Counted from the stretch's first letter, positions 7,635 through 56,183 are shown. The stretch is 64,000 bases of DNA from Nitrosomonadales bacterium (GCA_036676355.1 JAKFDA010000093.1:7857-71856); one strand, 5' to 3'. Numbers and translations are program-made. Notes: generated by a model from the letters alone, not told the origin.

Positions 7635-7650
7635 AGCGACTTTGATGCCA
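7635..7650 (-). promoter_or_regulatory. candidate sigma-54 promoter TGGCAT-caaag-TCGCT (OYE-pncB-pncA operon)
   Basis: Exact GG-N10-GC spacing, with the -12 GC 34 nt upstream of the ATG at 7602. The -12 is TCGC rather than TTGC. Confidence 0.45.
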
Positions 7651-7868
7651 GGAGATCGAAACGGCCGGTGCCGTTCCCGGCGCCTTACCTCCGACAAGAT
7701 GCGCGAAATTATAGAAGTCGGCCACGCGGCCTGACGATCGCAATCGCTCGCCCTTCGGTCCGGGAAAGCCGTCCTCCGGCACGCCCCGGCGTCGGCGAAT
7801 CAACCGCGCAACGCCAGGAGCGTCTGCACAGGGTTGCGGTGGAGTCGCCGGTGACTCAATATCGCGCG

Positions 7869-8939
7869 ATGGCCACACTCAAACTCAGCAAGCCCGCCGT
7901 GCAATCCAGCACGAAACCGCCGGTACGGCATAGCAGTACCGCCCGCCGCCCGAGCGGCGTGCGCACCGATACATCGAATCCGCCATCGAGCCTTCCGCCA
8001 CCGAGTGCCGAGCGAGGCGGCACGCGAGCATCGCGGCCGCCTCGCGCGACGGCATCAGCCGAAGCCGCCGCGCCCCGACCGAAAGAGCGTCGCGCCGAGC
8101 GCGGCGACCGCGCCGACGTTCAACGCACGCAACGGCCGCGTAAACCGGCGGCCGCGCCCACCCGGACGCCCCTCGCCGTCGCAACCTCTCATCCGCCGGG
8201 CAGCGTGCGGCTGTCCAAGCGCATGAGCGAACTCGGTTTGACGTCCCGCCGCGAAGCCGACGAATGGATCGAACGCGGCTGGGTGCTGGTTGACGGCAAA
8301 GTGGTCTCCGAACTCGGCTCGCGCGTCATGCCGGAGCAGAAAATCGCCATCGACAAGCGCGCGGCGCAACAGCAGACCGAACGCGTCACCATCCTGCTCA
8401 ACAAACCGGTGGGCTTCGTCAGCGGCCAGGCGGAAGACGGTTACAAGCCGGCCGTGACACTTATTACACCGGACAATCACTGGAGCGAAGACGGCTCGAA
8501 GCTGCGCTTCAGGCGGGAACACCTGAAGGGGCTCGCGCCGGCAGGGCGGCTCGATATCGACTCGGTCGGTTTGCTGGTCTTCACGCAGGATGGCCGCGTC
8601 GCCAAGCAACTCATCGGCGACAAATCGACGACCGAGAAGGAATATCTGGTCCGCGTGGAATACACAGGCGGCAAAAAGTTGCCCGCACGCGATCTCGCCC
8701 GGCTCAATCACGGCCTCGAACTCGATGGCGTCGCGTTGCTGCCGGCGAAAGTCAGCTGGCAGAACGAAGATCAGTTGCGCTTCGTGTTGCGCGAAGGGAA
8801 AAAGCGGCAGATCCGTCGTATGTGCGAAGCCGTCGGCCTCAAGGTGCTCGGGCTGAAGCGGGTACGTATCGGCAGCGTATCGCTCGGCAAGCTGCCGCCG
8901 GGGCAGTGGCGCTATCTGCACGAAAGCGAACGGTTCTGA
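7869..8939 (+). CDS. rRNA pseudouridine synthase (RsuA/RluB/RluF family) with long basic low-complexity N-terminal extension
   Basis: S4 domain ([33 protein letters not shown]) and catalytic [16 protein letters not shown] motif. About 115 aa of Pro/Arg/Ala/Ser-rich sequence precede them. Confidence 0.8.
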
Positions 8940-8982
8940 AAGCAGCGTAGAGCGGTGCGTCGAGAGCCGAGAGTAAAAGCTT

Positions 8983-9229
8983 GGAACACGGAGTGCACGC
9001 AGAACGTGAAGAAAAATCCTTCTTAGAGCTTTCCGTCTGCATCGGTAATTATTCTCGACCCGCTTCAATGGATTCCGGCTCGCGCCCTTCGGGCTTGACC
9101 GGACCACTATCCATCGTCATTCCCGACAAGCGGCGCAGCCCGCGCGATCGGGAATCCGGAAATAATTTCCTTCGCCACAGAGAACACAGTGTTCACAGAG
9201 ATGACGATCGAAGATTTTCTCCGTGTTCC
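8983..9229. repeat. composite palindromic (MITE/BIME-like) element, family 1, copy R1
   Basis: Outer inverted arms ggaacacggag (8983..8993) / ctccgtgttcc (9219..9229). Core palindrome cattcccgacaagcggcgcagcccgcgcgatcgggaatcc is shared with copies at 26348..26544 and 36513..36673. Confidence 0.65.
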
Positions 9230-9262
9230 TCCGTGCGCTCTTTGTTTCAGGTTTCGCACCTA

Positions 9263-10246
9263 CTAAACGGACAGCACGACGCCGAGCACCGCGAGCAGCA
9301 CAATCGCGACGATGACGCCCAGCCAGCGATGGGTGGTGAACCAGAATTGCGCACTCCATGTCAGCGCGCCATGGTCGAACCGTCCGTGCGCACCGCGATC
9401 TTCGCGCACGGGCTGCCAGAGATTGTCCGCACGGTCGTTTTCGATCGGCTCATCGGCCTGCTGTCCTTCGTAGGCCTTGAACGCCAGCATGCGATCGAGA
9501 AAACCGGGCAGCACGCGAGTGCCGAGGATTGCCTGCGCGGCCGGCCAGCCCACCCATAGCTCACGCCGTCGATGCGTCGCCGACCAGTACACGCCTTCGG
9601 CCGCAACTTCCGGCTGAAAGATCTTGCCGAGCGGCTTTGGCTTGTTCGGCATGCAGGTACGGCCCCAATCGAATTGCGGTGTGTTGAACGCCGACAGGTG
9701 CACCATAGTGAGATGCACACGACTGCGGTCGTGGATGAGTTCGCACCGGATCGAGTCGGTAAAGCCGCGCAGCGCGCTTTTGGCGCCGCAGTACGCCGCC
9801 TGCAACGGGATCGACCGGTACGCCAGTGCCGAACCGACCTGCACGATGGTGCCGCGATCGCGGGCTTTCATGCGCTTCAACGCAGCCAGCGTTCCCCACA
9901 CCGCGCCCAGATACGTCACCTCCGTCGCGCGCTTGAAATCCGCCGGATCGGTGCTGAGGAATTCGCAGAAGATCGTTGCCATGGCATCGTTGACCCACAC
10001 ATCGATCGGTCCCCACTCGCGTTCGATCTGCGCGGCCGCCGCCTCGACCGCGGCCTGATCCGCAACGTCGGTCGGGATGGCCATCGCTTCGCCGCCGACG
10101 CGCTCCACATCTTTCTGCGCGCCTTGCAGTCCTTCGGGACTGCGCGCGAGCAAGGCGACGCGCCAGCCGCGCTTGCCGAACGCAACGGCAGTCGCACGGC
10201 CGATGCCGCCCGAGCAACCTGTCACGACAGCGATCTTTGGCATCAT
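9263..10246 (-). CDS. SDR family oxidoreductase with C-terminal membrane anchor
   Basis: MMPKIAVVTGCSGGIGRA, YxxxK (AAYCGAKSA) and a terminal hydrophobic helix WLGVIVAIVLLAVLGVVLSV. Its start lies 2 nt after the stop of the upstream gene. Confidence 0.8.
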   Translation of the reverse strand: MMPKIAVVTGCSGGIGRATAVAFGKRGWRVALLARSPEGLQGAQKDVERVGGEAMAIPTDVADQAAVEAAAAQIEREWGPIDVWVNDAMATIFCEFLSTDPADFKRATEVTYLGAVWGTLAALKRMKARDRGTIVQVGSALAYRSIPLQAAYCGAKSALRGFTDSIRCELIHDRSRVHLTMVHLSAFNTPQFDWGRTCMPNKPKPLGKIFQPEVAAEGVYWSATHRRRELWVGWPAAQAILGTRVLPGFLDRMLAFKAYEGQQADEPIENDRADNLWQPVREDRGAHGRFDHGALTWSAQFWFTTHRWLGVIVAIVLLAVLGVVLSV

Positions 10247-10248
10247 GC

Positions 10249-12114: not shown

Positions 12115-12130
12115 TGCAGATAGCGTGCCG
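12115..12130 (-). promoter_or_regulatory. candidate sigma-54 promoter CGGCAC-gctat-CTGCA (ASRT operon)
   Basis: Exact -24/-12 spacing. The -12 GC is 36 nt upstream of the ATG at 12080, with gagg RBS in between. Confidence 0.6.
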
Positions 12131-12186: not shown

Positions 12187-12202
12187 GGGCCCGCCGTTTG
12201 CG
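12187..12202 (+). promoter_or_regulatory. candidate sigma-54 promoter GGGCCC-gccgt-TTGCG (yqhA-like gene)
   Basis: GG-N10-GC spacing, 40 nt upstream of the ATG at 12241, divergent from the ASRT promoter. The -24 half is weaker (CCC for CAC). Confidence 0.4.
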
Positions 12203-12240: not shown

Positions 12241-12888
12241 ATGAAATCGACCGACGACGGGCACGACTCTTCTTTCGCCAAGGCAATCGGCCGCTCGCGC
12301 ATGATTGTCATCGTGGCCGTCATTGCGGTGCTGCTGGCGGCCTTCTCGCTTTTTCTGCTCGGCGCGGTCATCGCGCTGGAGACGATTTACACTTCGTGGC
12401 AAGGCGTGCTGAGCGGCCATCTCGGCCCGACCGACCTCACCGTACGTTTTCTGGAAATCGTATCGGTGATGCTGAAGGCGGTCGTCTTCTATCTTATCGG
12501 CGTCGGTTTTTACAGCCTGTTCATTTCGCCGCTCAACCTCACCATTGCGCTGGGCGTCGAAACGCTCAACGATCTGGAAACCAAAATCATCAGCGTGGTT
12601 ATCGTCATCATGGCGGTCCACTTCCTGCAGCAGTTCATCCAGCAGAAATCCGCAATGGACATCCTGCTCGCCGCCGGCGCGCTCAGCGTGGTCACCGTTG
12701 CGCTCGTCTTCTTCAAGATCCACGCGCACCGCGAAGCCAGGGAGATCAAGGAGGAGCGCACGCTTGCGCAAGAGCGTGCGCGCGAGGAAATGTTCCAGAA
12801 CGCGCATGAAGAGCACGACGTGAAGCAGGGAGACGATGCCGATGCGCAGGCAAGCGCCGCATCGCGAGCGGATGACCCACAACACTGA
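12241..12888 (+). CDS. YqhA/UPF0114-like inner membrane protein with acidic/charged C-terminal tail
   Basis: Three to four TM helices with the pattern LEIVSVMLKAVVFYLIGVGFYSLFISPL..LETKIISVVIVIMAVHFL. Start taken at the ATG at 12241, downstream of the candidate promoter. Confidence 0.55.
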   Translation: MKSTDDGHDSSFAKAIGRSRMIVIVAVIAVLLAAFSLFLLGAVIALETIYTSWQGVLSGHLGPTDLTVRFLEIVSVMLKAVVFYLIGVGFYSLFISPLNLTIALGVETLNDLETKIISVVIVIMAVHFLQQFIQQKSAMDILLAAGALSVVTVALVFFKIHAHREAREIKEERTLAQERAREEMFQNAHEEHDVKQGDDADAQASAASRADDPQH

Positions 12889-13834: not shown

Positions 13835-13850
13835 CGCAAGCGCCATGCCC
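13835..13850 (-). promoter_or_regulatory. candidate sigma-54 promoter GGGCAT-ggcgc-TTGCG (ctaG)
   Basis: Exact spacing, 40 nt upstream of the start at 13796. Identical at 15 of 16 positions to the box at 26846..26861. Confidence 0.6.
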
Positions 13851-13918: not shown

Positions 13919-14281
13919 TTGAAGGCTTCCCTTTTTGCCGGTCTGGTAATCGCCTGCGCGACGCTCGCCGCGTGTGATCGTCCGGCGCAGGACATCGCCA
14001 AAGCCGATGCCGAACGCGGTCGCCTGCTGCTCTGGCAGTTCGGCTGCGGCAGCTGCCATCGCATCGGAGGCGTCGTCGGCGCGGTCGGCGAAGTCGGCCC
14101 GCCGCTCGATGGTGTCACAGCGCGCGTCTATATCGCGGGTGTGCTGGCCAATACGCCGGAAAACCTCATCCGCTGGATTCAGTCGCCGCAGCAAATCGAT
14201 CCGCTGACGGCCATGCCGGACATGGGCGTCAGCGCCGAACAGGCGCGTGACATGGTCGCGTTTCTGCAAAGTCGGCGATGA
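13919..14281 (+). CDS. monoheme cytochrome c lipoprotein
   Basis: TTG start gives MKASLFAGLVIACATLAAC (lipobox), and there is one CGSCH heme site. Its stop overlaps the next start. Confidence 0.7.
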   Translation: MKASLFAGLVIACATLAACDRPAQDIAKADAERGRLLLWQFGCGSCHRIGGVVGAVGEVGPPLDGVTARVYIAGVLANTPENLIRWIQSPQQIDPLTAMPDMGVSAEQARDMVAFLQSRR

Positions 14282-15147
14282 GCATTCGCCGCCTCGTCCA
14301 ACTATTGATTGCGCTCGCCGTACTGGCGACAGCGGCAAGCGCCGCGGTGATCTACTTCGGCTTATACAACGTCGCGGCGACGGAACAACACACCGCGCCG
14401 GTGTACTGGCTGTTGAACACATCGTTGAAGCAAGCGGCGGAACAACGCGCGAAGGATATCGTGCTGCCGGCACTGGATGACAAGCAGCGCATCGAGCGCG
14501 GATTCGACCTTTATCGTGAGCATTGCGTGAACTGCCACGGTGCGCCCGGCGTAGCGCCGGACGCCTTTGCGCTCGGCATGACCCCCGTGCCGGCCAATCT
14601 CGCGCTCACGGCAAAACACTGGCCCGCGAAACGGATGTACTGGGTGGTGCGCTACGGCATCAAGATGACCGGCATGCCGGCGTGGGAATTTCGTCTGCGC
14701 GAGGAAGAACTGTGGGATCTCGTGGCTTTCCTCATGACGCTGCCGAATATTTCACCACTGGACTATGCGGCCGGCGTGAGAAATGCGGCAACGAGGCAAG
14801 GGCCGCTCAAACCCATGCAGACGCAGGCACGCAAAGACGCCGTAACGTCCGAACCCGCCGCAATGCATGGCGATGCGGCACGCGGCAAGTTCGCACTGCA
14901 GCAGTACGCCTGCGTCACCTGTCACGAGATTCCCGGCGTGGTCGGCGCGATTCATGCGGTCGGCCCACCGCTCGAGGGTATGGCAACGCGCGGGTTCATC
15001 GGCGGCGTGTTGCCCAATACGCGCCAAAACATGGTGCGCTGGCTGCGCGACCCGCAAGCCGTCGATGCGCGCACGGCCATGCCCAATCTCGGTGTGACGG
15101 AACGGGACGCGCATGATCTCGCCGCATTTCTCGAGACGCTCAAATGA
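14278..15147 (+). CDS. diheme cytochrome c, membrane anchored
   Basis: N-terminal TM segment and CVNCH and CVTCH heme sites. The C-terminal domain is paralogous to the preceding gene. Confidence 0.8.
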   Translation: MSIRRLVQLLIALAVLATAASAAVIYFGLYNVAATEQHTAPVYWLLNTSLKQAAEQRAKDIVLPALDDKQRIERGFDLYREHCVNCHGAPGVAPDAFALGMTPVPANLALTAKHWPAKRMYWVVRYGIKMTGMPAWEFRLREEELWDLVAFLMTLPNISPLDYAAGVRNAATRQGPLKPMQTQARKDAVTSEPAAMHGDAARGKFALQQYACVTCHEIPGVVGAIHAVGPPLEGMATRGFIGGVLPNTRQNMVRWLRDPQAVDARTAMPNLGVTERDAHDLAAFLETLK

Positions 15148-16115
15148 AAGGCGCGCTGTGCGCGCTGCTGTTGCTGCCCGGTTGCCGCGGCGCGCAGCAC
15201 GTTCTCGATCCACGCGGCCCGCAAGCGCAGGTCATGGCAGATATAAGCTGGTTGCTGTACATCAGCGCCGCGCTAATTTTTCTTGTCGTGATGGCGATCG
15301 CCGCCTATGCCGTGTTCGGTCCCGCACACAAACGCGCGCGGCTTGCCCATCGCGGTCTGATCATCGGCGGCGGCATCACCTTTCCGATCGTCGCGCTTAC
15401 CGCGCTGATGATTTACGTTTTCGCCGGCGCGCCCGATCTGCTCCATCGAGGCAAGCCGATGCTGCACATCGAGGTCGTCGGCGAACAGTTCTGGTGGCGC
15501 GTGCTTTATCTCGACAAGAACGGCAGGCCGCAACTTGAAACCGCGAACGAGATTCATATTCCCGTCGGCGTAACGGTGGAATTGCGCTTGCGCTCCGCCG
15601 ACGTCATTCACAGCTTCTGGGTGCCCAGCCTGCACGGCAAGCTCGACATGATTCCCGGTCATGTCAACACCATGCGCATGCAGGCCGATCGCGCAGGCGT
15701 GTCTCGCGGCCAATGCGCAGAGTACTGCGGCGCGCAGCACGCCAAAATGGCGTTCCTTGTCATTGCACTCGAACCGGCCCGCTTCGACCAGTGGTTCGCG
15801 GCACAGATGCAGTCCGCACACGCGCCCGCGACGGCGCAGCTACGGCGTGGTCAGGAATTATTCATGTCGACCGGCTGCGTCACGTGTCACACGGTGCGCG
15901 GCACTGACGCAAGGGGCGTCATTGGTCCCGATCTCACGCATATCGGCAGTCGCCGCACGATCGGCGCCGGGCTCTTCCCGAATACGGTCGGTGCGCTGGG
16001 CGGCTGGATCGCCGACAGTCAGGCGCTCAAACCCGGCAACCGCATGCCGGCTTTCTCGGACCTGAAGGGCGAAGAACTGCGCGCGCTCGCCGCCTATATG
16101 GAAAGCCTTCAATGA
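15144..16115 (+). CDS. coxB: cytochrome c oxidase subunit II fused to a cytochrome c domain (caa3 type)
   Basis: CuA motif HSFWVPSLHGKLDMIPG...CAEYCGAQHAKM followed by a C-terminal CVTCH domain. Confidence 0.85.
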   Translation: MKGALCALLLLPGCRGAQHVLDPRGPQAQVMADISWLLYISAALIFLVVMAIAAYAVFGPAHKRARLAHRGLIIGGGITFPIVALTALMIYVFAGAPDLLHRGKPMLHIEVVGEQFWWRVLYLDKNGRPQLETANEIHIPVGVTVELRLRSADVIHSFWVPSLHGKLDMIPGHVNTMRMQADRAGVSRGQCAEYCGAQHAKMAFLVIALEPARFDQWFAAQMQSAHAPATAQLRRGQELFMSTGCVTCHTVRGTDARGVIGPDLTHIGSRRTIGAGLFPNTVGALGGWIADSQALKPGNRMPAFSDLKGEELRALAAYMESLQ

Positions 16116-16132
16116 AAGCGGTGAGCTGAGCG

Positions 16133-17188
16133 ATGGAATGGCTCGATTTCAAAAGTCACCCGCTCGCGCTGAATTTCGCGGTATTCGCAGCCGCCGGCCT
16201 CGTTGTATGGATTTCGGGCATACGACTGTCGCGCTACGCATCGACGATCGCCCACCGCACCGGCATCGGCCAGGCAGTGATCGGCATGGTGCTGCTCGGC
16301 GGCATCACTTCGCTGCCGGAGATCGCCGTGGCGGTAACGTCCGCGCTCGCCAATGTCGCGCCACTCGCGGTGAACAATCTGCTCGGCGGCGTCGCCATGC
16401 AAATCACCTTTTTAGCCGTCGCCGATGCACTGCTGGGGCGCGAGGCGTTGACGCACGTCGTGGCCAAGCCCGGCGTCCTGCTGCAAGGGGCGCTGGCGAT
16501 CCTGATGCTTGGCTTGGTGGCGGCTGCAGTGATGGTGGGCGACCGGCCGCTGTTCAATATCGGTGCATGGTGTTGGGGAATTCTGGGCACCTACTGCATC
16601 GCGGTGTGGATGGTTTCCAAGGAACGCAACGCCTGGGTGCCCAGCGGTGCATCGGGAGGTTCCGCCCTCGATATGGGACAAGGGATCGGCAATACGGGGC
16701 ACGGCACGGAGAGGTTTAGCGGGCGCACGGTGCTGATGCGCACGATCATCGCCGCGGCTTTCATTCTCGCTGCAGGTTTCGTGCTCTCTCGCACCGGCGA
16801 GGCCATCGCCGAAAAGACCGCGCTCGGCGCGAGCTTCGTCGGCGCCGTCCTGCTGGCGCTGTGTACCTCGCTTCCGGAAATCAGCACGGTTTACAGCTTG
16901 GTACGAATGCGCCGCTACGTTATGGCAGTGTCGGAAATGTTCGGCACCGGCATGTTCAATGTCGCTCTGCTGTTCGTGGTCGATGCGGTGTATCGAGGCG
17001 GGCCCGTGCTCAACGAGGTGGGCCGCTTCTCCGGTTTCGCCGCACTGCTCGGCATCGCGCTGATTACCATGTTCATGGTCGGTTTGATCGAGCGACGGGA
17101 CAAAACCGTGTTACGCATGGGTATTGATTCGCTTGCCGCGCTGCTGATCTATTTCGGCGGCCTGGTCGTCCTTTATCGGCTGCGATGA
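16133..17188 (+). CDS. CaCA (Na+/Ca2+ exchanger) family cation antiporter
   Basis: Two alpha-repeat-like motifs GITSLPEIAVAVTS and CTSLPEISTVYS, about 10 TM segments. Its stop overlaps the coxA start (ATGA). Confidence 0.75.
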   Translation: MEWLDFKSHPLALNFAVFAAAGLVVWISGIRLSRYASTIAHRTGIGQAVIGMVLLGGITSLPEIAVAVTSALANVAPLAVNNLLGGVAMQITFLAVADALLGREALTHVVAKPGVLLQGALAILMLGLVAAAVMVGDRPLFNIGAWCWGILGTYCIAVWMVSKERNAWVPSGASGGSALDMGQGIGNTGHGTERFSGRTVLMRTIIAAAFILAAGFVLSRTGEAIAEKTALGASFVGAVLLALCTSLPEISTVYSLVRMRRYVMAVSEMFGTGMFNVALLFVVDAVYRGGPVLNEVGRFSGFAALLGIALITMFMVGLIERRDKTVLRMGIDSLAALLIYFGGLVVLYRLR

Positions 17189-19695: not shown

Positions 19696-19699
19696 CGCT

Positions 19700-20060: not shown

Positions 20061-20076
20061 AGGCACGCTAGCTGCG
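20061..20076 (+). promoter_or_regulatory. candidate sigma-54 promoter AGGCAC-gctag-CTGCG (GH15 gene, distal)
   Basis: Exact spacing, 59 nt upstream of the ATG at 20134. Resembles the ASRT box (GGCACGCTA.CTGC). Confidence 0.5.
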
Positions 20077-20084
20077 TCCCACAT

Positions 20085-22505: not shown

Positions 22506-22529
22506 GGAAGCGCTACGGAAGCTCCGGTC

Positions 22530-34271: not shown

Positions 34272-34276
34272 GAGCG

Positions 34277-44930: not shown

Positions 44931-45928
44931 ACACATCACTGCAACAGGCGGGCGCGCCGCTGGTGTCCGTGGTCGTCCCGACGTGCGGAAGACCGACGCT
45001 GCTGCGACGCTGCCTGCTCGCCCTGCGACGTCAGCGTATGCCGGGCAACAGCTACGAGATCATCGTTGCCGACGACGGTCACTCGGACGCGACGCAGCGC
45101 CTCGCGGAACAACTCGATGGTGCGGATCCCGAAGGGCCGCGCGTGCGCTACGTCCGCTCGCCTGGTTGCAAAGGCGGCCCCGCCGGTGCGCGCAACGCCG
45201 GCTGGCGCGCGGCGCATGCGCCGGTGATCGCCTTCACCGACGACGATACCGTGCCCGCACGCGACTGGCTGGACGAAGGAATGCACGCGCTGCAACCGGG
45301 CGTTGCCGCCGCCACCGGCCGTACGCGCGTGCCGCTGCCGAGTGCCCCGACCGATTGGCAGCGCAACACCGCAGGACTCGAACGCGGCGAGTTCATCACC
45401 GCCAACTGTTTCGTACGGCGCGAGGTGCTGGAGGAACTGGACGGTTTCGACGAACGCTATCGTCGTCCGTGGCGCGAGGATTCCGACCTGCATTTCGCCA
45501 TGCTGGAGCGAGGCATGGCGATCGCGCATGCGCCGCGCGCGCTGGTGCTTCATCCCGCACGCGAGGCTCCCTGGGGAGTCAGCGCGAAGATTCAGCAAAA
45601 CGTTTACTTCGACGCGCTGCTGTTCAGGAAACATCCGCTGTTATACCGCGCGCGCATTTCTCCCGGCCCGCCGCTACGCTACTATTTCGCCGTCTCCGCG
45701 CTCGGCCTCGCCGCGATCGGCCTGCTCCGCGGCGCCCCGCTGCTGGCGCTCGGCGGGGGAACCGCCTGGCTCGCATGGACGGTCGGTTTCGCCGCCTATC
45801 GATTGCGCCACACTTCGCACGATCCGCGCCATATCGCCGAAATGCTTTACACCTCGGCGGTCATTCCGCCGCTAGCGGTGTATTGGCGCATCGCCGGCGC
45901 GCTGCGTTTCAAGGTCGCCTTCGCATGA
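44927..45928 (+). CDS. glycosyltransferase family 2 with C-terminal TM segments
   Basis: VSVVVPTCGRP, a DDG..D motif and FTDDD (DxD). Confidence 0.8.
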   Translation: MNTSLQQAGAPLVSVVVPTCGRPTLLRRCLLALRRQRMPGNSYEIIVADDGHSDATQRLAEQLDGADPEGPRVRYVRSPGCKGGPAGARNAGWRAAHAPVIAFTDDDTVPARDWLDEGMHALQPGVAAATGRTRVPLPSAPTDWQRNTAGLERGEFITANCFVRREVLEELDGFDERYRRPWREDSDLHFAMLERGMAIAHAPRALVLHPAREAPWGVSAKIQQNVYFDALLFRKHPLLYRARISPGPPLRYYFAVSALGLAAIGLLRGAPLLALGGGTAWLAWTVGFAAYRLRHTSHDPRHIAEMLYTSAVIPPLAVYWRIAGALRFKVAFA

Positions 45929-46956
45929 ACGCGCGCCCCGATCTGCTCGCCGATATTGCGACGACCGTACCACTGCCGCGCTTTGTGCAGATCGAGCCGG
46001 TCGGGCAATGCAATCTCCGCTGCGCCATGTGCACGATTCAGTATCGCGCCGATGCACCGCATGACGGCTCACCCGCGCTGCTCTCGTTCGACGATTTCAC
46101 CCGACTGCTGGCGCAGTTCGATGATGTCGATGCGCTACACCTGCAGGGCCTCGGCGAACCGCTCATGAATCCGGACTTCTTTCGCATGGTGCGCCATGCG
46201 GTGGACCGCGGCTTCAAGGTTTCCACCAACAGCAATCTCACCCTGCTCAGCGAAGCGCGCGCGCAGGCTTGCGTGGACAGCGGCCTCGACACGTTGCACA
46301 TCTCGCTCGACGGCGCCAGCGCAGCGGTGTACGAATCGATCCGCCATGGGGCCTCCTTCGCCAAGGTCATGCGTAATCTCGAGCGGATCGTCGCCGCAAA
46401 AGAGCGATTGCAGAGCGCGACACCTCATCTGCGCATCGTGACGGTAGTGATGCGCAAGAACCTGGACGAACTCGCCGATATCGTCACGCTGGCTTTCACG
46501 CATGGCGTCGACTCGGTTTTTGTGCAGCATCTAAGCCATGATTTCCAGGAAAGCTCGTTACCCGAAGCGTACATCCCGATGCGCAGTTTCGTGCAAAACG
46601 AATCGCTGCTGAACGAAGACCGGGCGCGCATCCGCACGTGTTTCGGGCACGCGCGCGAGCGCGCCGCCGCGCTCGGCGTGCAATTGCGACTGCCGGCGCT
46701 CGAAAGCGAACGTCGCAATTCCACGCCATGCGGTTGCGACTGGCCCTGGCGCGGCGCCTACCTGACCTTTCGCGGCGAAGCGTTGCCATGCTGCATGGTC
46801 AGCACGCCGGAACGTTTCCGACTGGGCAATATGCTGCAGCGCGGCGTCAGCGAGGTGTGGAACGACATGCCTTATCGGCAACTGCGCGAAGCGCTGGAGT
46901 CCGGCCACCCGCCCGATATCTGCCGTTCCTGTTCTCTCTATCGGCATACCTTCTGA
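45925..46956 (+). CDS. radical SAM / SPASM-domain protein
   Basis: CNLRCAMC (CxxxCxxC) cluster, plus the Cys-rich C-terminus CGCDWPW..LPCCMV..CRSCSLY. Confidence 0.8.
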   Translation: MNARPDLLADIATTVPLPRFVQIEPVGQCNLRCAMCTIQYRADAPHDGSPALLSFDDFTRLLAQFDDVDALHLQGLGEPLMNPDFFRMVRHAVDRGFKVSTNSNLTLLSEARAQACVDSGLDTLHISLDGASAAVYESIRHGASFAKVMRNLERIVAAKERLQSATPHLRIVTVVMRKNLDELADIVTLAFTHGVDSVFVQHLSHDFQESSLPEAYIPMRSFVQNESLLNEDRARIRTCFGHARERAAALGVQLRLPALESERRNSTPCGCDWPWRGAYLTFRGEALPCCMVSTPERFRLGNMLQRGVSEVWNDMPYRQLREALESGHPPDICRSCSLYRHTF

Positions 46957-46958
46957 GC

Positions 46959-48032
46959 ATGGCGCACGCACATCCGGATCGCGTTTCGCCAACACCGCAG
47001 CGCATTGCGGTGTTTCGCGCCTTGCAGATCGGCGACATGCTGGTCGTCGTGCCGGCCTTGCGCGCATTGCGTCGTGCCTATCCCCGCGCGCACATCACGC
47101 TTATCGGTTTACCGTGGGCGCGCGACTTCGTCGAACGCTTCGGCTATTGCGACGACCTGCTCGAATTCCCCGGCTACCCCGGCCTGCCCGAGTGCGAACC
47201 CGACACGCGGGCGCTGGCGGATTTTTACACTGCGGCACGCGCCCGGCGCTTCGATCTCGCCTTGCAGATGCACGGCAGCGGGCGCTTGACCAACGCGCTC
47301 GTACTCGAACTGGGCGCGCAGGCCGTTACGGGCTTCCGCCCCGCCGAAGCCCGCGCGCCGTCGCACTTCCTGCCATGGCAAACCCATCAGTCCGAACTGC
47401 GCCGTTATCTCGACCTGATGAGCGCGATCGGCGTACCGCCGCAGGGCGAGCATCTCGAATTCCCCGTCCGTCCGGCAGAACAACACGAAGCAGCCGAATT
47501 GCTGAAGCGCCATTTTCCGCTTGCTGCCGCGCCCTACATCTGCCTGCACGCCGGTGCGCGTCTGCCGTCGCGCCGCTGGCCGGCCGAACGTTTCGCCGCC
47601 GTAGCGGATGCGCTTGCGCGCCACGGCTACACCATTGTGCTGACCGGCGCGCCTGAAGAAGCCGCTGTCGGCATTCAAGTGTGCGAAGGGATGCGTCGAG
47701 CCGCGGTCAACCTGATCGGCAAAACCAGCCTGGGGGCGTTTGCCGCCTTGGTGCGCGCAGCGCGCCTGCTGATCTGCAACGATACCAGCGCCTCGCATGT
47801 GGCCGCCGCGACGCGCACGCCGAGTGTCGTAATTTCTTCCGCCGCGGATGTGGCGCGCTGGCGCCCGCTGGATCAAAGCCGTCATCGCGTGCTTTGGCAT
47901 GACACCGACTGTCGCCCTTGCGATCACGCCATCTGCCCGACCCGACACGAATGCGCACTGGGCGTCGAGGCCAAATCCGTCATCGCGATGGCCCGCGATT
48001 TGCTGAATGTGGGCGAACGCGACGCGGCGTAA
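46959..48032 (+). CDS. glycosyltransferase family 9 (second heptosyltransferase-like)
   Basis: IAVFRALQIGDMLVVVPALRAL and LLICNDTSASHVAAATRTPSVV. Confidence 0.8.
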   Translation: MAHAHPDRVSPTPQRIAVFRALQIGDMLVVVPALRALRRAYPRAHITLIGLPWARDFVERFGYCDDLLEFPGYPGLPECEPDTRALADFYTAARARRFDLALQMHGSGRLTNALVLELGAQAVTGFRPAEARAPSHFLPWQTHQSELRRYLDLMSAIGVPPQGEHLEFPVRPAEQHEAAELLKRHFPLAAAPYICLHAGARLPSRRWPAERFAAVADALARHGYTIVLTGAPEEAAVGIQVCEGMRRAAVNLIGKTSLGAFAALVRAARLLICNDTSASHVAAATRTPSVVISSAADVARWRPLDQSRHRVLWHDTDCRPCDHAICPTRHECALGVEAKSVIAMARDLLNVGERDAA

Positions 48033-48090
48033 GAGGAGAAGCTTGAACGAGCGAAGGCCTTCAAATTTTTTGTCAACGAGATTTTGAAAC

Positions 48091-49035
48091 GTGAAACGTC
48101 TCCGCATCCTCACCTGGCATGTGCACGGTAATTACCTCTATTACCTCACTCAGGTTCCGCACGATTTTTTCGTGCTGACGGATGCACGGCGCTCGCCGGG
48201 TTATGCCGGTCGCGCCGGCACGCTGCCGTGGGGGCCGAACGTGATCGAAGTGCCGGTGGCGCAGGTGCGCGAAACGCCGTTCGACTGCGTGCTGTATCAA
48301 TCGCGCCGGGGCTGGGAGCGCGACCGCCTCGATCTGCTGTCCGAAGCGCAGCGCAAACTGCCGCGCATTTTTCTGGAACACGATCCGCCGCAGGCGCATC
48401 CGACCGACACGCGGCACTTCGTCGACGATCCGGGCGCGATGCTGGTTCATGTCACGGCTTTCAACGCTTTGATGTGGGACAGCGGCCGCACACCCACGAC
48501 CGTCATCGAGCACGGCGTCAAGCCGCTCAGCACGGCGCGCTACAGCGGTGAACTCGAACGGGGCATCGTCGTTGTGAACAATCTGCGCAAACGCGGTCGT
48601 CGCCTCGGCGCCGACGTGTTTCACCGGGTGCGCGAACAGGTACCTCTCGATCTGGTCGGCATGGACGCCGAAAGCGCCGGCGGATCCGGGGAAATCGGCA
48701 ACGTCGCGCTGACCGCGCATATCGCGCGCTACCGTTTTTTTTTCAACCCGATCCGCTGGACGAGCCTGGGGCTGGCGGTCATCGAAGCGATGATGGTGGG
48801 GCTACCCATTGTCGGGCTGGCTACCACCGAGATGAGCACTGTCGTGCGCAACGGCGAGTCGGGCTGGGTGGATACGCGCATCGAAGTACTGGTGGAACGC
48901 ATGCAGGCGCTGTTGGCCGACCCGGCCGAAGCGCGCCGGCTCGGCGAAAACGCGCGCCGCGACGCGCTCGAGCGCTTCAATATCGATCGCTTCGCGGCCG
49001 AGTGGTCACGCCTCTTGCTAGAGGTCTGCACATGA
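48091..49035 (+). CDS. glycosyltransferase (GT1/GT4-like, short)
   Basis: GTG start. C-terminal GT-B motif FFFNPIRWTSLGLAVIEAMMVGLPIVG..ESGW. Confidence 0.7.
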   Translation: MKRLRILTWHVHGNYLYYLTQVPHDFFVLTDARRSPGYAGRAGTLPWGPNVIEVPVAQVRETPFDCVLYQSRRGWERDRLDLLSEAQRKLPRIFLEHDPPQAHPTDTRHFVDDPGAMLVHVTAFNALMWDSGRTPTTVIEHGVKPLSTARYSGELERGIVVVNNLRKRGRRLGADVFHRVREQVPLDLVGMDAESAGGSGEIGNVALTAHIARYRFFFNPIRWTSLGLAVIEAMMVGLPIVGLATTEMSTVVRNGESGWVDTRIEVLVERMQALLADPAEARRLGENARRDALERFNIDRFAAEWSRLLLEVCT

Positions 49036-49129
49036 CCGGGGTGGGATTCGATGCATCTGGCCTCTGCGGTTTTTCCGGGGGTTTTTACGAGGCAGTCCCC
49101 TTAAACGCCCGATCGAAGGAAGCGCCGCC

Positions 49130-50329
49130 ATGCTGAACAGCTTTTTCATCGCCGGCTTTCCCGGCACGACCCGCGTGCCGCGCAGCGGCCGCCGGATCGA
49201 GCAGGCGGAAATTTGCGGCCACCAGCGCTTTTACGCGCAGGACTACGTCCGTGCCAGAAAACTCGGCTTGCAGGTCGCGCGCGAGTCGGCGCAATGGCCG
49301 GCAATCGAGCGTGTTGCGGGACACTACGATTTTTCCTTTGTGCGGCGTCGCATCCACTGCGCGCGCGCGCAAGGCATTCAACTGATCTGGACCCTGCTCG
49401 ACGGCGGCTGGCCGTCGGACCTGGACGTCATGCGACCGGTATTCGTGCAGCGTTTCGCCGCCTACGCACGTGCCTTCGCGAGACTGTTACGCGATCAGGA
49501 GGTCAAGGATCCGGTCGTCGTGCCGATTAACGAAATCGGTCCGCTCGCGCGCGCGGGTGGCGAACTGGCGCATGCCTTTCCGTTTCTGGAGGAGCGCGGC
49601 CTTGAATTGCGCTGCCAGCTCGTGCGCGCGTCGGTCGCGGCGATCGATGCGCTGCGCGAGGTCATCCCGGAAATTCGCATCATGCACGTCGAACCGATGT
49701 TTCACGTCGCGCCGCATCCGTTCCACCCGGAGGACAGCGACGCGGCCGAATCGATGCGCCGCGAACAATATGCGGTGTTCGACATGCTGAGCGGCCGCAT
49801 CTGGCCGCAACTCGGCGGACGCGAGCATCATCTCGATGTGCTCGGTGTCAGCCACTACCTCGCCGGTCAGTATTACTACGCTGGCCCAAAACATCCGGGC
49901 AAGATGATCAACCCGCAAGCCGCGGAATGGCGCCGCCTGAGCGACATGCTGGCCGAAGTCGGACGGCGTTACACCTGCCCGTTGCTGCTTGCCGCCACCG
50001 GCCATGACGGCGCCGGACGCGCCGCATGGCTGCGCTACGTCTGCCGCGAGGTGCAGCATGCGACTGCGCGAGGCATCGCGGTGAAAGGGGTGTGCATGCA
50101 GCCGATCGTCGACTGCACCGCACCGCAATTCGAAGCGCGCAGCGCGAGCGGCCTATGGGGCGCCGCCGACGAGGAAGGCGAACGCAGTGTCGATATGTGG
50201 CTCGCCAAGGAACTGCGCGAACAGCAACGCGCCTTCGAGCGCATGAGCAGCGTGTCGGGCATGAACGCGACCGAACTGGACGTCGCCGAACGCGCGCGCA
50301 TCGCCAGCAACCGGGCGCTCGACGCATGA
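49130..50329 (+). CDS. TIM-barrel protein resembling glycoside hydrolase family 1 / clan GH-A
   Basis: INEIGP resembles the acid/base NEP motif. At the expected nucleophile position I read [10 protein letters not shown] (no Glu). gaaggaag RBS is present. Confidence 0.45.
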
Positions 50330-51366
50330 GGCGTCGCACGCGTCAACGCGTGTTGGTGACCGGCGGCGCCGGCTTTCTCGGCTCGCACCTGTGCGATCGA
50401 CTGCTCGCGCAGGGCGATGAAGTGCTGTGCGTCGATAACTTCTACACCGGCGATCGCGACAACATCGCGCACCTGCTGCGCCATACGCGCTTCGAACTGA
50501 TGCGCCACGACATCACTTTTCCGCTGTACGTCGAGGTCGACCGCATCTATAACCTCGCCTGCCCGGCATCACCGATTCACTACCAGACCGATCCGGTGCA
50601 GACCCTGAAAACCTGCATCCACGGCGCAATCAACATGCTCGGGCTGGCCAAGCGCCTGGGTATACCGATCCTGCAGGCTTCGACCAGCGAGGTCTATGGC
50701 GACCCGACGGAGCATCCGCAATTCGAAGGCTATTGGGGACACGTGAATCCGACCGGACCACGCGCCTGTTACGACGAAGGAAAACGCTGCGCCGAAACGC
50801 TGTTCTTCGACTACCATCGCCAGCATCGCGTGCCGGTGAAAATCGCGCGCATCTTCAATACCTATGGTCCGCGCATGGCCGACGACGATGGCCGCGTCGT
50901 ATCGAATTTCATCATGCAGGCGTTACGCGGCGAGCCGATCACGCTTTACGGCGACGGCGCGCAAACGCGCTCCTTCTGCTATGTGGACGATCTCGTCGAC
51001 GGACTGATACGGCTGATGAACACCGAGAACGAGTTCATCGGTCCGGTCAATTTCGGCAATCCGGCCGAAACAACGGTGCACCAACTTGCAGAACGCATCA
51101 TTGCCCTTACCGAGTCGACCTCCGCGATCGAATATCGTCCTTTACCGACCGATGATCCGGTACGGCGTTGCCCCGATATCGGGCTTGCTCAGACCAGACT
51201 CGGATGGTCACCGCAGATCGAACTGGAAGAAGGTTTGAAACAAACCATCGGTTACTTCTGCGCTGCGCTCGAAATCGATGTCCCGGCACAATGCGTCGCA
51301 CATCTGTCGCCGCCGGATTCAATACCGCGCCGATTGGCGGGCGCATCGGCCATGCCCGATTTCTGA
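50326..51366 (+). CDS. UDP-glucuronate decarboxylase (UDP-xylose synthase)
   Basis: [89 protein letters not shown]. Confidence 0.9.
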
Positions 51367-51400: not shown

Positions 51401-52501
51401 TTATTGCCGCAACGGCAGGCGCACGTTGAACTGACTGCCTTTGCCCGGTCCGTCACTGCGCGCCTGCACAATGCCGTTGTGCATGGTCACGAATTCGCGC
51501 ACCAGCGCGAGCCCGATGCCCAGGCCGCCTTTGGCGACGGCCCCGTCCGCTTGTGTAAAGAGTTCGAATATCCGCGGCAGCGCCTCGGGGTCGATCCCGC
51601 ATCCGGTGTCTACGATCTTGACGACGGCTTCCGCGCCCTCCACGGTGGCTTCGACTGTTATCTGCCCACCGTCCGGGGTGAACTTCGTGGCGTTCTGGAG
51701 CAGATTGACAAACACCTGATGCAACCGGTCGATGTCGCACAGGACCGGAATGGGAGCCTCGAGCAATATCGTTTTAAGCATCTGTCGTTTTTGTCCGGCC
51801 GATTCAGCCACTGTTGCGACAGCCAGATCCACCACACCGCGCAGGTCGACTTCGCGCATGTTCAGTGCGACCTTGCCGGTTTCCACGCGGGTAACGTCGA
51901 GCAGGTCGTCCACCAGCCGTTTGATGAAGTCGATCTGACGCTGCATGATCTTGATCGGGAAGAGCAGATCGGCATCGCCATGCGTCTTTATGCGCACGAT
52001 CTCCAGCGCGTTCGACAGCGGCGAGATCGTATTGCGCACTTCATGGCCCAGCGTTCCGATAAAGCCGCTACGCTCCTTTTCGGCGCGCCCGCATATCGTT
52101 GCCCGATTACGCAGCGCTTCGAGTTGCTGCTTCAACTCGGTGCGATCTTCGAGGATCTTGCAGTAGCCCGTTATCTCGCCTTGCGCGCTTGTCAGTTCGA
52201 CCAGGCATCCCATCGCCCAGAAGCGAGTGCCGTCCGCGCGCAGCATCCAGCGATCGTCTTCCGATGATTTACGTGCATTGGCCGCGTCGATTTCGTAGCG
52301 CGGGATGCCGCGCTCGACATCCTCGGGAACGAACAGCAAATCCATCTGATGACCGATTACATCGACCGCCTCGTATCCAAACAGGGACGAAGCCTTGGCA
52401 TTCAACCACTGGATCTTTCTGTTTGCGTCAAGCAGGATGATGGCGTGCTGCGGTGTCTGCGCCGCAAACAACACCATCAGCGCCGTTGCTTCCATGCCCA
52501 T
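51401..52501 (-). CDS. cytoplasmic PAS-domain sensor histidine kinase
   Basis: One PAS domain, H-box LGHEVRNTISPL, and N/G1/G2 boxes (LLQNATKFT, DTGCGI, GGLGIGLALV). Confidence 0.85.
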   Translation of the reverse strand: MGMEATALMVLFAAQTPQHAIILLDANRKIQWLNAKASSLFGYEAVDVIGHQMDLLFVPEDVERGIPRYEIDAANARKSSEDDRWMLRADGTRFWAMGCLVELTSAQGEITGYCKILEDRTELKQQLEALRNRATICGRAEKERSGFIGTLGHEVRNTISPLSNALEIVRIKTHGDADLLFPIKIMQRQIDFIKRLVDDLLDVTRVETGKVALNMREVDLRGVVDLAVATVAESAGQKRQMLKTILLEAPIPVLCDIDRLHQVFVNLLQNATKFTPDGGQITVEATVEGAEAVVKIVDTGCGIDPEALPRIFELFTQADGAVAKGGLGIGLALVREFVTMHNGIVQARSDGPGKGSQFNVRLPLRQ

Positions 52502-55115: not shown

Positions 55116-55156
55116 ATGCGCTCCCTCTCGCGTACATAGCATAGAGCGCCTGCGCA

Positions 55157-55417
55157 TCACCGTCGCGCAATGAGTACTCCGACGGCAACTCCTGCCGCGA
55201 ACGCAAGGGCGACGGTGCCAAACGGGTAACGGTGAATATAGGTTCCAACCGCATCACGCGCCTCGACGGCGCCGCGCTGCGACGCATCGCCCGCATCGCG
55301 CGCACGTTCGCGCAAACCGTATAACCAGTTCAGCAATCCCGCCGTATGCGACGCGGCCGAATCCGCCGCATAACGACCGCTTTCACGTATCGCCTGCTCA
55401 TCTGCGTTGAATTCCAT
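55157..55417 (-). CDS. DUF883 (ElaB/YqjD family) tail-anchored protein, second copy
   Basis: C-terminal anchor YPFGTVALAFAAGVAVGVLIARR. Confidence 0.7.
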   Translation of the reverse strand: MEFNADEQAIRESGRYAADSAASHTAGLLNWLYGLRERARDAGDASQRGAVEARDAVGTYIHRYPFGTVALAFAAGVAVGVLIARR

Positions 55418-55455
55418 AAAATTCCTTATCGTTCGATCGGCGCCGGCGATATGCC

Positions 55456-55968
55456 TCAGCGCCGAATGATTGCCGGCGCCGGTGTGCCGCTACGCCCCAG
55501 TACAAGCGTCGCGGGCCGCCTCGGCAGCCCGCGCCGCAGTTGCGCGTGATCGCGCGCGGAATGCTGCTGGATCAATTCATCGAACTGGCGTTGCAACAGC
55601 CGGCGCACAGGCTGCGGCAAATCGAAATCGAGGGCATCGCGATAGCGCATCAGCGCGACCGCTTCAAGACGTTCCAACATCCCGAGCGCGGAAGTTTCAT
55701 CGCTCATCGCCCCGAACGCGCGATTGTGCTGCGAACCATGCAGCGTCGGTTCACTCAACGCCGGCACGCTGCATTCCGCAGTGCCCATGAGATTGCGCAA
55801 TTTGGCGAGACGACGGCGCGCATGCGCAGTGCGCTTGCCGCGATGCTTGAGCGAGCGCCGCACCGTGTCGTCGCGGACGAACTGCGCGCAGGCCCGGTAA
55901 CAGGTTTCTCCTTCGCGGCACACCTCTATCAGGTCGTCGAGGATTTCCGACACCCGAGCAATTTTCAT
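55456..55968 (-). CDS. PA2169/DUF2383-like four-helix-bundle protein
   Basis: ILDDLIEVCREGETCYRACAQFV.. and a second-half repeat LERLEAVALMRYRDAL. Confidence 0.6.
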   Translation of the reverse strand: MKIARVSEILDDLIEVCREGETCYRACAQFVRDDTVRRSLKHRGKRTAHARRRLAKLRNLMGTAECSVPALSEPTLHGSQHNRAFGAMSDETSALGMLERLEAVALMRYRDALDFDLPQPVRRLLQRQFDELIQQHSARDHAQLRRGLPRRPATLVLGRSGTPAPAIIRR

Positions 55969-56016
55969 CGCTGCCCTCCTGGTTGTGTATGGGTTGCAAA
56001 CATATCGGCGGAGTGG

Positions 56017-56032
56017 TGCAGCCAGCATGCCC
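56017..56032 (-). promoter_or_regulatory. candidate sigma-54 promoter GGGCAT-gctgg-CTGCA (PA2169-to-kinase operon)
   Basis: Exact spacing, 50 nt upstream of the ATG at 55968. Confidence 0.6.
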
Positions 56033-56167
56033 ACGCCTCGCCGCGCTCAAACAACTTGTCAGATATACGCACCCTCGTTGTCCGCTTTTCAGACGCCATA
56101 CTTTTTCTTTCGTTGCTCTTTGCGCTGTCCATTTTGACTGCCCGTTGTGCCGTCGGTGACATGCGCC

Positions 56168-56183
56168 GGGCACATCGCTTGCC
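56168..56183 (+). promoter_or_regulatory. candidate sigma-54 promoter GGGCAC-atcgc-TTGCC (PRC-barrel gene 1)
   Basis: Both halves are near consensus with exact spacing. The leader is long, 123 nt to the ATG at 56305. Confidence 0.55.

Follow-up and report, generated by a model that had tools for sequence, protein, structure and literature searches.

Putative sigma-54 promoters of stress-type genes in a 50-kb island of a Nitrosomonadales bacterium

A 64,000-nucleotide stretch of DNA from a Nitrosomonadales bacterium, here called the window, carries many genes of stress-type families that are preceded by short boxes with GG-N10-GC spacing. Our analysis indicates that these boxes are very likely -24/-12 promoters of sigma-54 (RpoN), and that about 15 transcription units of a 50-kb island would be under enhancer-dependent control. 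The island encodes an NtrC-family enhancer-binding response regulator, whose homologues are found beside similar boxes in other genomes. A preliminary description of this DNA had proposed that stress-type genes are wired through RpoN plus an enhancer-binding protein, and this proposal is borne out computationally by the motif, its conservation, the activator domains and the related loci.

Enrichment, position and quality of the boxes

The preliminary description named 19 boxes, all of which were found at their places with exact GG-N10-GC spacing. The pattern that it gave for them, GGCAY-N5-YTGC, fits ten, while the other nine deviate in one block (GGGCCC, GGGAAC twice, CGGCGT, TGGCCC, GTGC twice and TCGC twice). 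This strict pattern occurs 12 times in the window, compared with 4.27 +/- 1.99 times in dinucleotide shuffles (12 or more in 0 of 100 shuffles), and 10 of the 12 matches are boxes of the preliminary description. The shorter pattern GGCA-N7-TGC has 27 matches; intergenic DNA makes up 11.5% of the window and holds 14 of these (p ~3e-7).

Because circularity had to be avoided, a position weight matrix (PWM) was built solely from sites in other genomes, taken from related loci among 160 (L001-L160) collected around homologues of the window's activator. The threshold was strict, so that relaxation barely altered the matrix, and pseudocounts were added at scoring. Among the 128,000 window positions scored, ranks 1 to 8 fell to boxes 39344, 30374, 26846, 13835, 39211, 56168, 12115 and 34629, all intergenic (p ~7e-7), and boxes 35055, 20061, 20085, 36486, 12187, 56017, 25367 and 38235 took ranks between 14 and 35. 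Boxes 7635, 22784 and 35211 ranked only 42, 103 and 140, where about 0.2 to 0.6 chance matches at the right distance are expected per window, as estimated from the ranks. A score of 10 bits or more was reached by 35 positions, and non-coding DNA, which amounts to 17% of the window, contains 22 of them (p ~2e-9), so that box density is higher in intergenic than in coding DNA; we therefore estimate about 19 real sites, near the "about 18" of the preliminary description.

The geometry of the boxes also agrees with what had been described. The C of the -12 GC lies 30 to 42 nt before the first in-frame start codon for 14 boxes; the distance is 44 to 60 nt for 30374, 56017, 20061 and 34629. At the activator gene it amounts to 89 or 143 nt. 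By our own count, the box is on the coding strand in all of about nine co-directional intergenic regions, and boxes 13835 and 26846 are indeed identical at 15 of 16 positions. Among the related sites, 97% have a purine at position 7 and just 6% a C at position 16; neither preference had been imposed, and the two together give back the extended consensus TGGCACG-N4-TTGCW. Of the 13 best window boxes, 11 share the position-7 purine. The extended consensus is followed by the ten best boxes in having both GGCAY and YTGC. Spacing, consensus and placement thus support the assignment of the motif to the sigma-54 -24/-12 class. We regard about 13 boxes as well supported by these sequence criteria, three to four as moderately supported and 7635 and 22784 as weak, while 35211 is probably wrong. 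The boxes are given below with their PWM rank and their distance to the start codon; L081 is a syntenic metagenome contig, whose 16-mer at the same place is added where it differs.

39344 to 39359, plus strand: CGGCATGCGGCTTGCT, predicted promoter of the glycan operon (12 genes from GT4 to epimerase, ~39400-51366); rank 1, 42 nt to ATG; identical 16-mer in L081
39211 to 39226, minus strand: CGGCATAGGCATTGCT, predicted promoter of the YghA-like SDR gene (38321-39178), divergent from 39344; rank 5, 34 nt to ATG; orthologous boxes in L081 (AGGCATAGGCCTTGCC), L001 (GGGCATAGGCTTTGCT) and L023
30374 to 30389, plus strand: CGGCATGTCGTTTGCA, predicted promoter of BrkB/YihY-AsmA (to 33322); rank 2; L081 CGGCATGTGGCTTGCA; strong boxes at the AsmA orthologues in L083 and L085
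26846 to 26861, minus strand: CGGCATGGCGCTTGCG, predicted promoter of a small secreted protein gene (26520-26810; N-terminus signal-peptide-like); rank 3, 37 nt to ATG
13835 to 13850, minus strand: GGGCATGGCGCTTGCG, predicted promoter of ctaG, for caa3 oxidase assembly (12897 to ~13796; Pfam Caa3_CtaG); rank 4, 40 or 46 nt to the start
56168 to 56183, plus strand: GGGCACATCGCTTGCC, predicted promoter of PRC-barrel gene 1 (to 56844; Pfam PRC); rank 6, 42 nt to ATG
56017 to 56032, minus strand: GGGCATGCTGGCTGCA, predicted promoter of the DUF2383-to-PAS-kinase operon (55968 down to 51401); rank 25, 11.2 bits, 50 nt to ATG with AGGAG; DUF2383 homologues in L010, L012, L036 and L042 carry boxes
12115 to 12130, minus strand: CGGCACGCTATCTGCA, predicted promoter of ASRT - VKOR/SPW - SDR (12080 down to 9263); rank 7, 36 nt to ATG with GAGG
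34629 to 34644, minus strand: GGGCATATCCGTTGCC, predicted promoter of the DUF883/YqjE-like/YqjK-like module (34570 down to 33340); rank 8, 60 nt to ATG with AGGAG; L081 GGGCATAGCCGTTGCC
35055 to 35070, minus strand: CGGCACGCCGGGTGCA, predicted promoter of a hydrophilic 104-aa protein gene (35026 down to 34712); rank 14, 30 nt to ATG with AGGAG; L081 AGGCACGGGCGGTGCA
35155 to 35170, plus strand: CGGTATGCAGCTTGCA, likely the real promoter of hemerythrin 2 (35262-35846), absent from the preliminary description; rank 10, conserved; L081 CGGTATGGCCGTTGCT
36486 to 36501, minus strand: CGGCGTGTGCGTTGCA, predicted promoter of the GlcG/HbpS-like gene (36447 down to 35974); rank 22, 40 nt to ATG with GGAG; stronger in L081, AGGCATGGGCGTTGCA
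38235 to 38250, minus strand: TGGCCCACAAGCTGCT, variant box before the activator gene, where it may serve as an autoregulatory promoter with a long leader; rank 35; conserved island in L081, TGGCCCGCAATCTGCT
20061 to 20100, plus strand: tandem candidates AGGCACGCTAGCTGCG (20061) and CGGCACAGCGCTCGCT (20085) in the gap of 77 nt upstream of the GH15 gene (20134-22014; GH15 and TREH_N by Pfam, product glucoamylase/trehalase-like); ranks 15 and 20, 59 and 35 nt to ATG
12187 to 12202, plus strand: GGGCCCGCCGTTTGCG, moderate candidate before the UPF0114/YqhA-like gene (12241-12888), back to back with 12115; rank 24, 11.3 bits, 40 nt to ATG; deviates from GGCA
25367 to 25382, plus strand: GGGAACGTCGGTTGCA, moderate candidate before Csp (copper storage, DUF326, PF03860) - peroxiredoxin (25416-26341); rank 28, 10.6 bits, 35 nt to ATG; also within a GGAACG-N9-CGTTCC inverted repeat
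22784 to 22799, plus strand: GGGAACGCTCGCTGCT, weak candidate before hemerythrin 1 (22832-23332); 7.4 bits
7635 to 7650, minus strand: TGGCATCAAAGTCGCT, weak and doubtful candidate before OYE-pncB-pncA; 9.3 bits, TCGC at -12
35211 to 35226, plus strand: CGGCATCCGAGGTGCG, unsupported hemerythrin-2 box of the preliminary description; 6.7 bits
2478 to 2493, minus strand: GGGCACGCGCAGTGCA, candidate outside the range described before, in front of a frameshifted PCC/DUF296 gene (~1992-2428, N-terminus and C-terminus in different frames); rank 29, intergenic, 51 nt
2593 to 2608, plus strand: GGGAACAGGCCTTGCA, candidate and divergent partner of 2478, before the open reading frame (ORF) 2712-3143; rank 21, intergenic, 105 nt

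The three low-ranking boxes fared differently. Box 35211 had been assigned to hemerythrin 2, but it is not conserved in L081, where the conserved element is the counterpart of window 35155-35170. Boxes 7635 and 22784 have the described spacing, but are weak. For a box of the quality of 22784, about 0.5 chance matches are expected at such a distance over all units (an estimate), and in L072 a homologue is preceded by a strong box, about equally far away. Box 7635 is doubtful because a good sigma-70-like element, TCGTCA-18-TATAAT (10 of 12), lies upstream of OYE at 7737-7708 on the minus strand, about 60 nt upstream of the box.

Conservation, the candidate activator and its sensor kinases

Contig L081 is syntenic with window 29782-41661, and its coding DNA is 70 to 85% identical to that of the window. 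Between the genes, only short islands can be aligned, and these islands are the boxes. All eight promoters of the shared stretch (glycan operon, SDR, activator, GlcG-like, hydrophilic protein, DUF883 module, BrkB and hemerythrin 2) kept their place, orientation and GG-N10-GC spacing. Boxes also precede hemerythrin-2, SDR, AsmA, GlcG and activator genes elsewhere. For hemerythrin-2 homologues the box lies 75 to 90 nt upstream in L081, L083, L085, L002 and L020 and further upstream in L023, and boxes of the form TGGC[CGT]C or TGGTAC were found upstream of about 20 activator orthologues.

This conservation bears on two other explanations of the boxes. If the genes were transcribed from promoters of the sigma-70 family (RpoD, RpoS or extracytoplasmic function [ECF] sigma factors), the GG-N10-GC boxes would be non-functional or chance matches. 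The DUF883, YghA-type and other homologous families are RpoS- or EcfG-dependent elsewhere, the element upstream of OYE resembles a sigma-70 promoter, and three of the boxes first described score near chance, all of which would fit this explanation. However, the top eight PWM matches are all intergenic, the boxes are the sole conserved islands in diverged intergenic DNA, and two blocks only 5 nt apart are incompatible with a -35/-10 promoter of sigma-70, RpoS or an ECF factor. A scan for the sigma-70 consensus found none in the intergenic regions of the strong boxes, which is weak evidence in a genome of 63% G+C. The EcfG-type motif GGAAC-N16-17-CGTT is not enriched in the window either (2 matches, 1.17 expected). 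Both matches are on the minus strand, at 25364-25388 (overlapping the region of box 25367 on the opposite strand) and 55221-55246, and neither is positioned to drive a box-bearing unit. We consider transcription from sigma-70-family promoters very improbable.

The other explanation is that the conserved 16-mer is a transcription-factor operator, or some different DNA or RNA element that has no more than a likeness to a -24/-12 promoter, since conservation alone is silent on which protein binds. Against this, the 16-mer is asymmetric instead of palindromic, it is consistently found on the coding strand and as far from the gene as a promoter would be, and it matches the sigma-54 consensus at positions that were not forced. 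A sigma-54 activator gene accompanies it, and 48 of the 160 loci have a sigma-54 gene as well; boxes of the same type precede Ralstonia rpoN2, which is experimentally rpoN1-dependent (PMC4371752). An Rfam scan of the window found no RNA family and therefore no toxic small RNA or S17-type RNA. Such an element thus seems even less probable than sigma-70-family transcription, and the boxes are best explained as sigma-54 promoters.

Promoters of this class need an enhancer-binding protein, and two genes of the island are candidates for the control of the boxes:

36702 to 38093, minus strand: NtrC-family enhancer-binding response regulator with REC, sigma-54 AAA+ and HTH_8 domains (Pfam), proposed activator of the island
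51401 to 52501, minus strand: cytoplasmic PAS-HisKA-HATPase histidine kinase (Pfam), encoded by the last gene of the 56017 operon; it may be the cognate sensor and provide positive feedback

The activator matches Pfam Sigma54_activat (2e-70) and has the Walker A sequence GESGTGKE and a GSFTGA loop. It stays below every NCBIfam equivalog cut-off (AtoC 389 bits versus 714, NtrC 387 versus 559, PEP-CTERM regulator 361 versus 503), and did not reach those for AtoC, NtrC, ZraR, GlrR, PspF, NorR, RtcR or LuxO. Its identity is 93% to the L081 protein, 73 to 84% to proteins of soil metagenomes and metagenome-assembled genomes (MAGs; 82 to 84% in "Burkholderiales bacterium" MAGs), and about 60% to those of Paraburkholderia, Caballeronia, Trinickia, Ralstonia, Cupriavidus, Herbaspirillum and Achromobacter. 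Judged by these homologues, the window would belong with uncultured Burkholderiales from soil. It is the only enhancer-binding protein encoded in the 64 kb, and its gene lies at the centre of the densest box cluster; position and synteny thus suggest that one activator may control all units.

Homologues of the PAS kinase adjoin the activator in many related loci. The window also encodes two paralogous hybrid kinases (26997-30356 and 60372-61958). The three kinases are paralogous, with 71 to 88% nucleotide identity over stretches at 27603-27839, 51497-51727 and 60951-61187; identity is highest (82 to 88%) between the 1119-aa hybrid kinase (26997-30356) and the PAS kinase of the 56017 operon.

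Based on these features, we propose the following sequence of events. A cytoplasmic PAS histidine kinase, for which 51401-52501 is the best candidate, would sense a signal, plausibly the redox, oxygen, energy or osmotic state, and phosphorylate the response regulator 36702-38093. The regulator would then spend ATP to open the closed complexes of the sigma-54 holoenzyme at about 15 promoters. The units activated together would include the DUF883 modules (ElaB/YqjD-type), hemerythrins, peroxiredoxin with Csp, PRC-barrel, DUF2383 and DUF4142 proteins, topoisomerase IB, the YghA-like SDR, the GH15 glucoamylase/trehalase-like enzyme, BrkB-AsmA, CtaG and the 12-gene surface-glycan operon. Positive autoregulation is predicted, because a conserved variant box precedes the regulator gene and a box-driven operon includes the kinase gene.

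Several observations weigh against reading the island as one sigma-54-dependent stress regulon. No rpoN or other sigma-54 gene was found in the 64-kb window. All strong window boxes begin with C or G where the canonical box has T (position 1), several boxes deviate from GGCA or TTGC, and 7635, 22784 and 35211 barely stand out from chance, if at all. A clear Shine-Dalgarno sequence is missing from many of the predicted 5' leaders, and the gene starts used here are calls from a codon-usage model trained on long ORFs. Furthermore, "general stress" is a label taken from the RpoS and EcfG regulons of other organisms and not a measured phenotype. Last, a search for shared k-mers in the 200 nt upstream of the 13 strongest boxes of the preliminary description gave nothing convincing, and a dyad search in the window and the closest loci revealed no shared enhancer. 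Given the lack of a shared enhancer among the window promoters, several activators could be involved instead of a single regulator.

The only footprint common to the upstream regions of the window and L081 was a GCTT-N-AAGC palindrome, which is not repeated in the window, and in an alignment of 12 activator-gene upstream regions nothing was conserved but the box itself. In Paraburkholderia/Caballeronia loci, the region upstream of otsA has a classical architecture, with a palindrome CGCGAYG-N6-CRTCGCG about 100 nt upstream of the box, an AT-rich block GTCACATTTGCATACATTTTTATTT and then the -24/-12 box (for example L034 ~12370-12470, L039 and L049). Palindrome and block look like an enhancer plus a DNA-bending site; this combination was not found in the window. 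As a separate observation, a perfect 17-bp palindrome, CGCCGCTTCAAGCAGCG, lies at 35134-35150 between the divergent boxes 35055 and 35155 and has one copy in the window, and the near-identical GCGCTGCTTCAAGCGGC occurs in L081 in a different box-bearing intergenic region.

These results leave some room for a third explanation, in which the boxes are real sigma-54 promoters that do not form one stress regulon. Different enhancer-binding proteins encoded elsewhere would then answer different signals (envelope, nitrogen, carbon), and the island would mirror the tendency of sigma-54 to control cell-exterior and miscellaneous functions. Such separate control would agree with the missing common enhancer motif upstream of the window boxes, with the three different sensor kinases of the window and with the two divergent activator paralogues of most Burkholderiaceae loci. 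The large glycan operon and BrkB-AsmA likewise fit the "bacterial exterior" theme (PMC3162934). On the other hand, the regulator family co-occurs with box-bearing otsA, BON, CsbD, DUF883, hemerythrin and SDR genes over many genera, and the single enhancer-binding protein in 64 kb lies amid the densest boxes. The box spacers of orthologous promoters are conserved, which does not discriminate between the two readings. It seems that control by separate activators is rather unlikely, and a common activator remains the preferred explanation.

Related loci, rpoN2 and the gene content of the window

The first 80 related loci (1.42 Mb) contain 317 strict motifs, whereas about 100 were obtained in Markov simulations, and 254 of the 317 lie in the 24% called non-coding. 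The genes downstream encode OtsA (32 loci), sigma-54 (18), BON (11), CsbD (9) and DUF883 (8) proteins, and further families are DJ-1/PfpI, a LuxR-type regulator, DUF2383, hemerythrin and the YghA-like SDR. Neighbours of the SDR, PRC-barrel, topoisomerase IB, hemerythrin and PAS-kinase types were seen in Herbaspirillum, Noviherbaspirillum, Cupriavidus and Usitatibacter loci. In L059, L064-L075 and L080, which are MAGs labelled Binatia, Eisenbacteria, Acidobacteriota and Usitatibacter, activator homologues of 56 to 61% identity accompany box-bearing CsbD, BON, DJ-1 and otsA genes, with topoisomerase IB genes nearby; the association of activator and box therefore reaches beyond Burkholderiales. 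These comparisons suggest that, in Burkholderiales and also outside this order, stress islands are marked by the regulator family and the motif, often in linkage with a sigma-54 gene.

The 48 loci with a sigma-54 gene inside their flanks include L006, L007, L013, L018, L063, L087 and L090-L092. In the Ralstonia loci L013 and L018, the sigma-54 gene adjoins two homologues of the window's activator and is preceded, at 61 nt, by the box TGGCA[TC]AC[CG]CTTTGCA. Since this box matches the published R. solanacearum rpoN2 promoter (TGGCACAGCCTTTGCA, at 63 nt), we identify both as rpoN2 loci. A GT4 - DUF2334 - GT4 block, present in the window at 58698-63948, flanks the sigma-54 gene in both loci, and BrkB stands beside the activators there. 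Ralstonia rpoN2 is reported to have a sigma-54 promoter, to be rpoN1-dependent and to be induced in minimal medium, while "its role remains enigmatic" (PMC4371752).

Classes of promoters differ in the first base of the box (position 1, about -26), which was excluded from scoring. It is T in 31 of 33 promoters of sigma-54 (rpoN2-type) genes and in 18 of 24 promoters of activator genes in the related loci, and in only 8 of 75 effector promoters (otsA, BON, CsbD, DUF883, DJ-1), with Fisher p ~4e-19 for counts that are uncorrected for shared ancestry; examples are at L063 7892, L013 7491, L034 17135 and window 38235. A two-tier cascade could be built on this difference, with promoters partitioned by position 1 between two sigma-54 paralogues. 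In the first tier, T-class promoters would be recognized by the housekeeping RpoN1, which would thereby turn on the genes for RpoN2 and the activator; in the second, these two together would act on the effector promoters of the C/G class. An RpoN1-first tier fits because Ralstonia rpoN2 is rpoN1-dependent, and if the cascade were real, Betaproteobacteria would possess, as a counterpart of RpoS, a dedicated "stress sigma" of the sigma-54 family. One argument against the cascade is that no rpoN2 was seen in the window. Boxes of the C/G class in the Cupriavidus loci L056 and L057 speak against strict partitioning too, since that genus is reported to be without rpoN2 (PMC4371752). We regard the cascade as speculative and rather unlikely; the position-1 base could simply tune promoter strength.

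As for the window itself, annotation of the called genes with Pfam and NCBIfam bore out the gene names first given. The left part holds OYE-pncB-pncA, ASRT-VKOR/SPW-SDR, UPF0114 and CtaG beside a caa3-type oxidase cluster. Then follow GH15, two hemerythrins, Csp plus peroxiredoxin, BrkB-AsmA, the DUF883/YqjE-like/YqjK-like module, the GlcG-like gene, the REC-AAA+-HTH_8 activator, the YghA-like SDR and the glycosyltransferase operon of 12 genes. The 56017 operon consists of DUF2383 - DUF883 - DUF4142 - topoisomerase IB - membrane protein - PAS kinase, and two PRC-barrel genes and MscS were also identified.

A qNOR-type nitric oxide reductase (3-1862) and the caa3-type oxidase cluster (13919-20056) flank or belong to the island. 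The cluster comprises two cytochromes c, COX2, a Na/Ca-exchanger-like protein and COX1 and is divergent from the box-driven ctaG; a box of its own was not found for this oxidase operon. At the right end (58698-64000), the order is GT4 - (hybrid kinase) - DUF2334 - GT4, and the last GT4 gene ends 52 nt before the window end. An ORF that runs off this end (...ASPAYARL*) was considered as a sigma-54 gene and rejected, its sequence being unlike a sigma-54 C-terminus.

Two kinds of repeats were also observed. A module of about 130 nt occurs at 2651-2784, 22517-22775 and 26925-26986 and includes the leader of ORF 2712-3143 together with its N-terminal codons. In the second copy, a hairpin-containing insertion of about 105 nt interrupts the module, and the end of this copy abuts the weak box 22784; the third is a truncated remnant of 18 codons upstream of box 26846. 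An element resembling repetitive extragenic palindromes, with a ATTCCCGA...TCGGGAAT hairpin, has copies of 77% identity at 26352-26429, 3' of the peroxiredoxin gene, and at 36520-36597, between the activator stop codon and the GlcG box.

Significance and comparison with known systems

Sigma-54 with an enhancer-binding protein is a well-known mechanism, and ElaB/YqjD, CsbD, BON/OsmY, OtsA, YghA, hemerythrin, PRC-barrel, DUF4142 and PA2169-like proteins are textbook RpoS or EcfG targets. We rate the content of the putative regulon as unusual and conserved, and as a direct lead on the function of rpoN2. If the assignment is right, much of stress or dormancy physiology would be all-or-none, ATP-dependent and under two-component control, not set by sigma-factor competition. 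It predicts that a second sigma-54 (rpoN2), with this activator family, drives the stress island, which makes the role of rpoN2 testable, and the island may explain what the "enigmatic" second sigma-54 of relatives is for. The sequence and positions of the boxes could be used to annotate regulons in soil Burkholderiales, and they also point to candidate factors for persistence and for tolerance of desiccation and osmotic stress in relatives associated with plants, insects and humans.

In gene content, the window and the related loci overlap with the RpoS regulon of E. coli and Pseudomonas, which includes DUF883 yqjD/elaB, yghA-type SDR, otsA, osmY/BON, csbD-like, peroxiredoxin/catalase and PA2169-type DUF2383 genes. 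However, RpoS uses -10/-35 promoters of the sigma-70 type, whereas the promoters predicted here are of the sigma-54 -24/-12 type with a strictly ATP-dependent activator, and the proposed control is a two-component phosphorelay instead of sigma-factor abundance. The PhyR-NepR-EcfG system of Alphaproteobacteria has similar effector families (hemerythrin, PRC-barrel, DUF4142, CsbD, BON, GH15, DUF883), and there too a response-regulator-type switch starts the control. It differs in that it acts through partner switching on an ECF sigma factor, and its GGAAC-N16-17-CGTT motif is not enriched here.

The enteric systems PspF/psp, RtcR/rtcBA, ZraSR and NorR (PMC11722255 citing Bush and Dixon; PMC4987338) likewise combine sigma-54 with a specialised AAA+ activator, encoded beside its targets, to induce genes that protect against stress. 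Each of them serves one or two operons of narrow function, in contrast to about 15 clustered, broad stress-type units here. The Bordetella activator BP2158 (PMC11722255) is similar in being a betaproteobacterial Fis-family sigma-54 activator with its own sigma-54-type promoter and a long 5' leader; it is linked to the persistence (Bvg-minus) mode, and its regulon is "not yet known". Homologues of the window's activator with 57 to 58% identity occur in the Bordetella-labelled loci L076 and L079. A plasmid-borne RpoN of Bradyrhizobium DOA9 has a loose link to stress (PMC13207237).

The closest known relatives are the rpoN2 loci of B. pseudomallei and R. solanacearum (RSp1671), and they limit the novelty that the preliminary description had claimed. 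In the full-text literature covered, which excludes most subscription-journal papers, we found no description of a sigma-54 regulon built of these effector families; the Ralstonia rpoN2 locus and the link of B. pseudomallei RpoN2 to katE were already known. In B. pseudomallei, RpoN2 is required for katE expression at 48 to 72 h (late stationary phase), and an RpoN box precedes katE (PMC4745423). The papers on rpoN2 report one target (katE) or none and name no activator, and a regulon of the DUF883, CsbD, BON, otsA, hemerythrin and PRC-barrel type is not described in them; the window, unlike these loci, has no rpoN gene. On the side of likeness, the Ralstonia loci L013 and L018 have two homologues of the window's activator next to their sigma-54 gene, and the box before that gene agrees with the published one in sequence and distance; the GT4 - DUF2334 - GT4 block is common to the window and Ralstonia, and katE is a classic stationary-phase stress gene of the same kind as the genes of the window.

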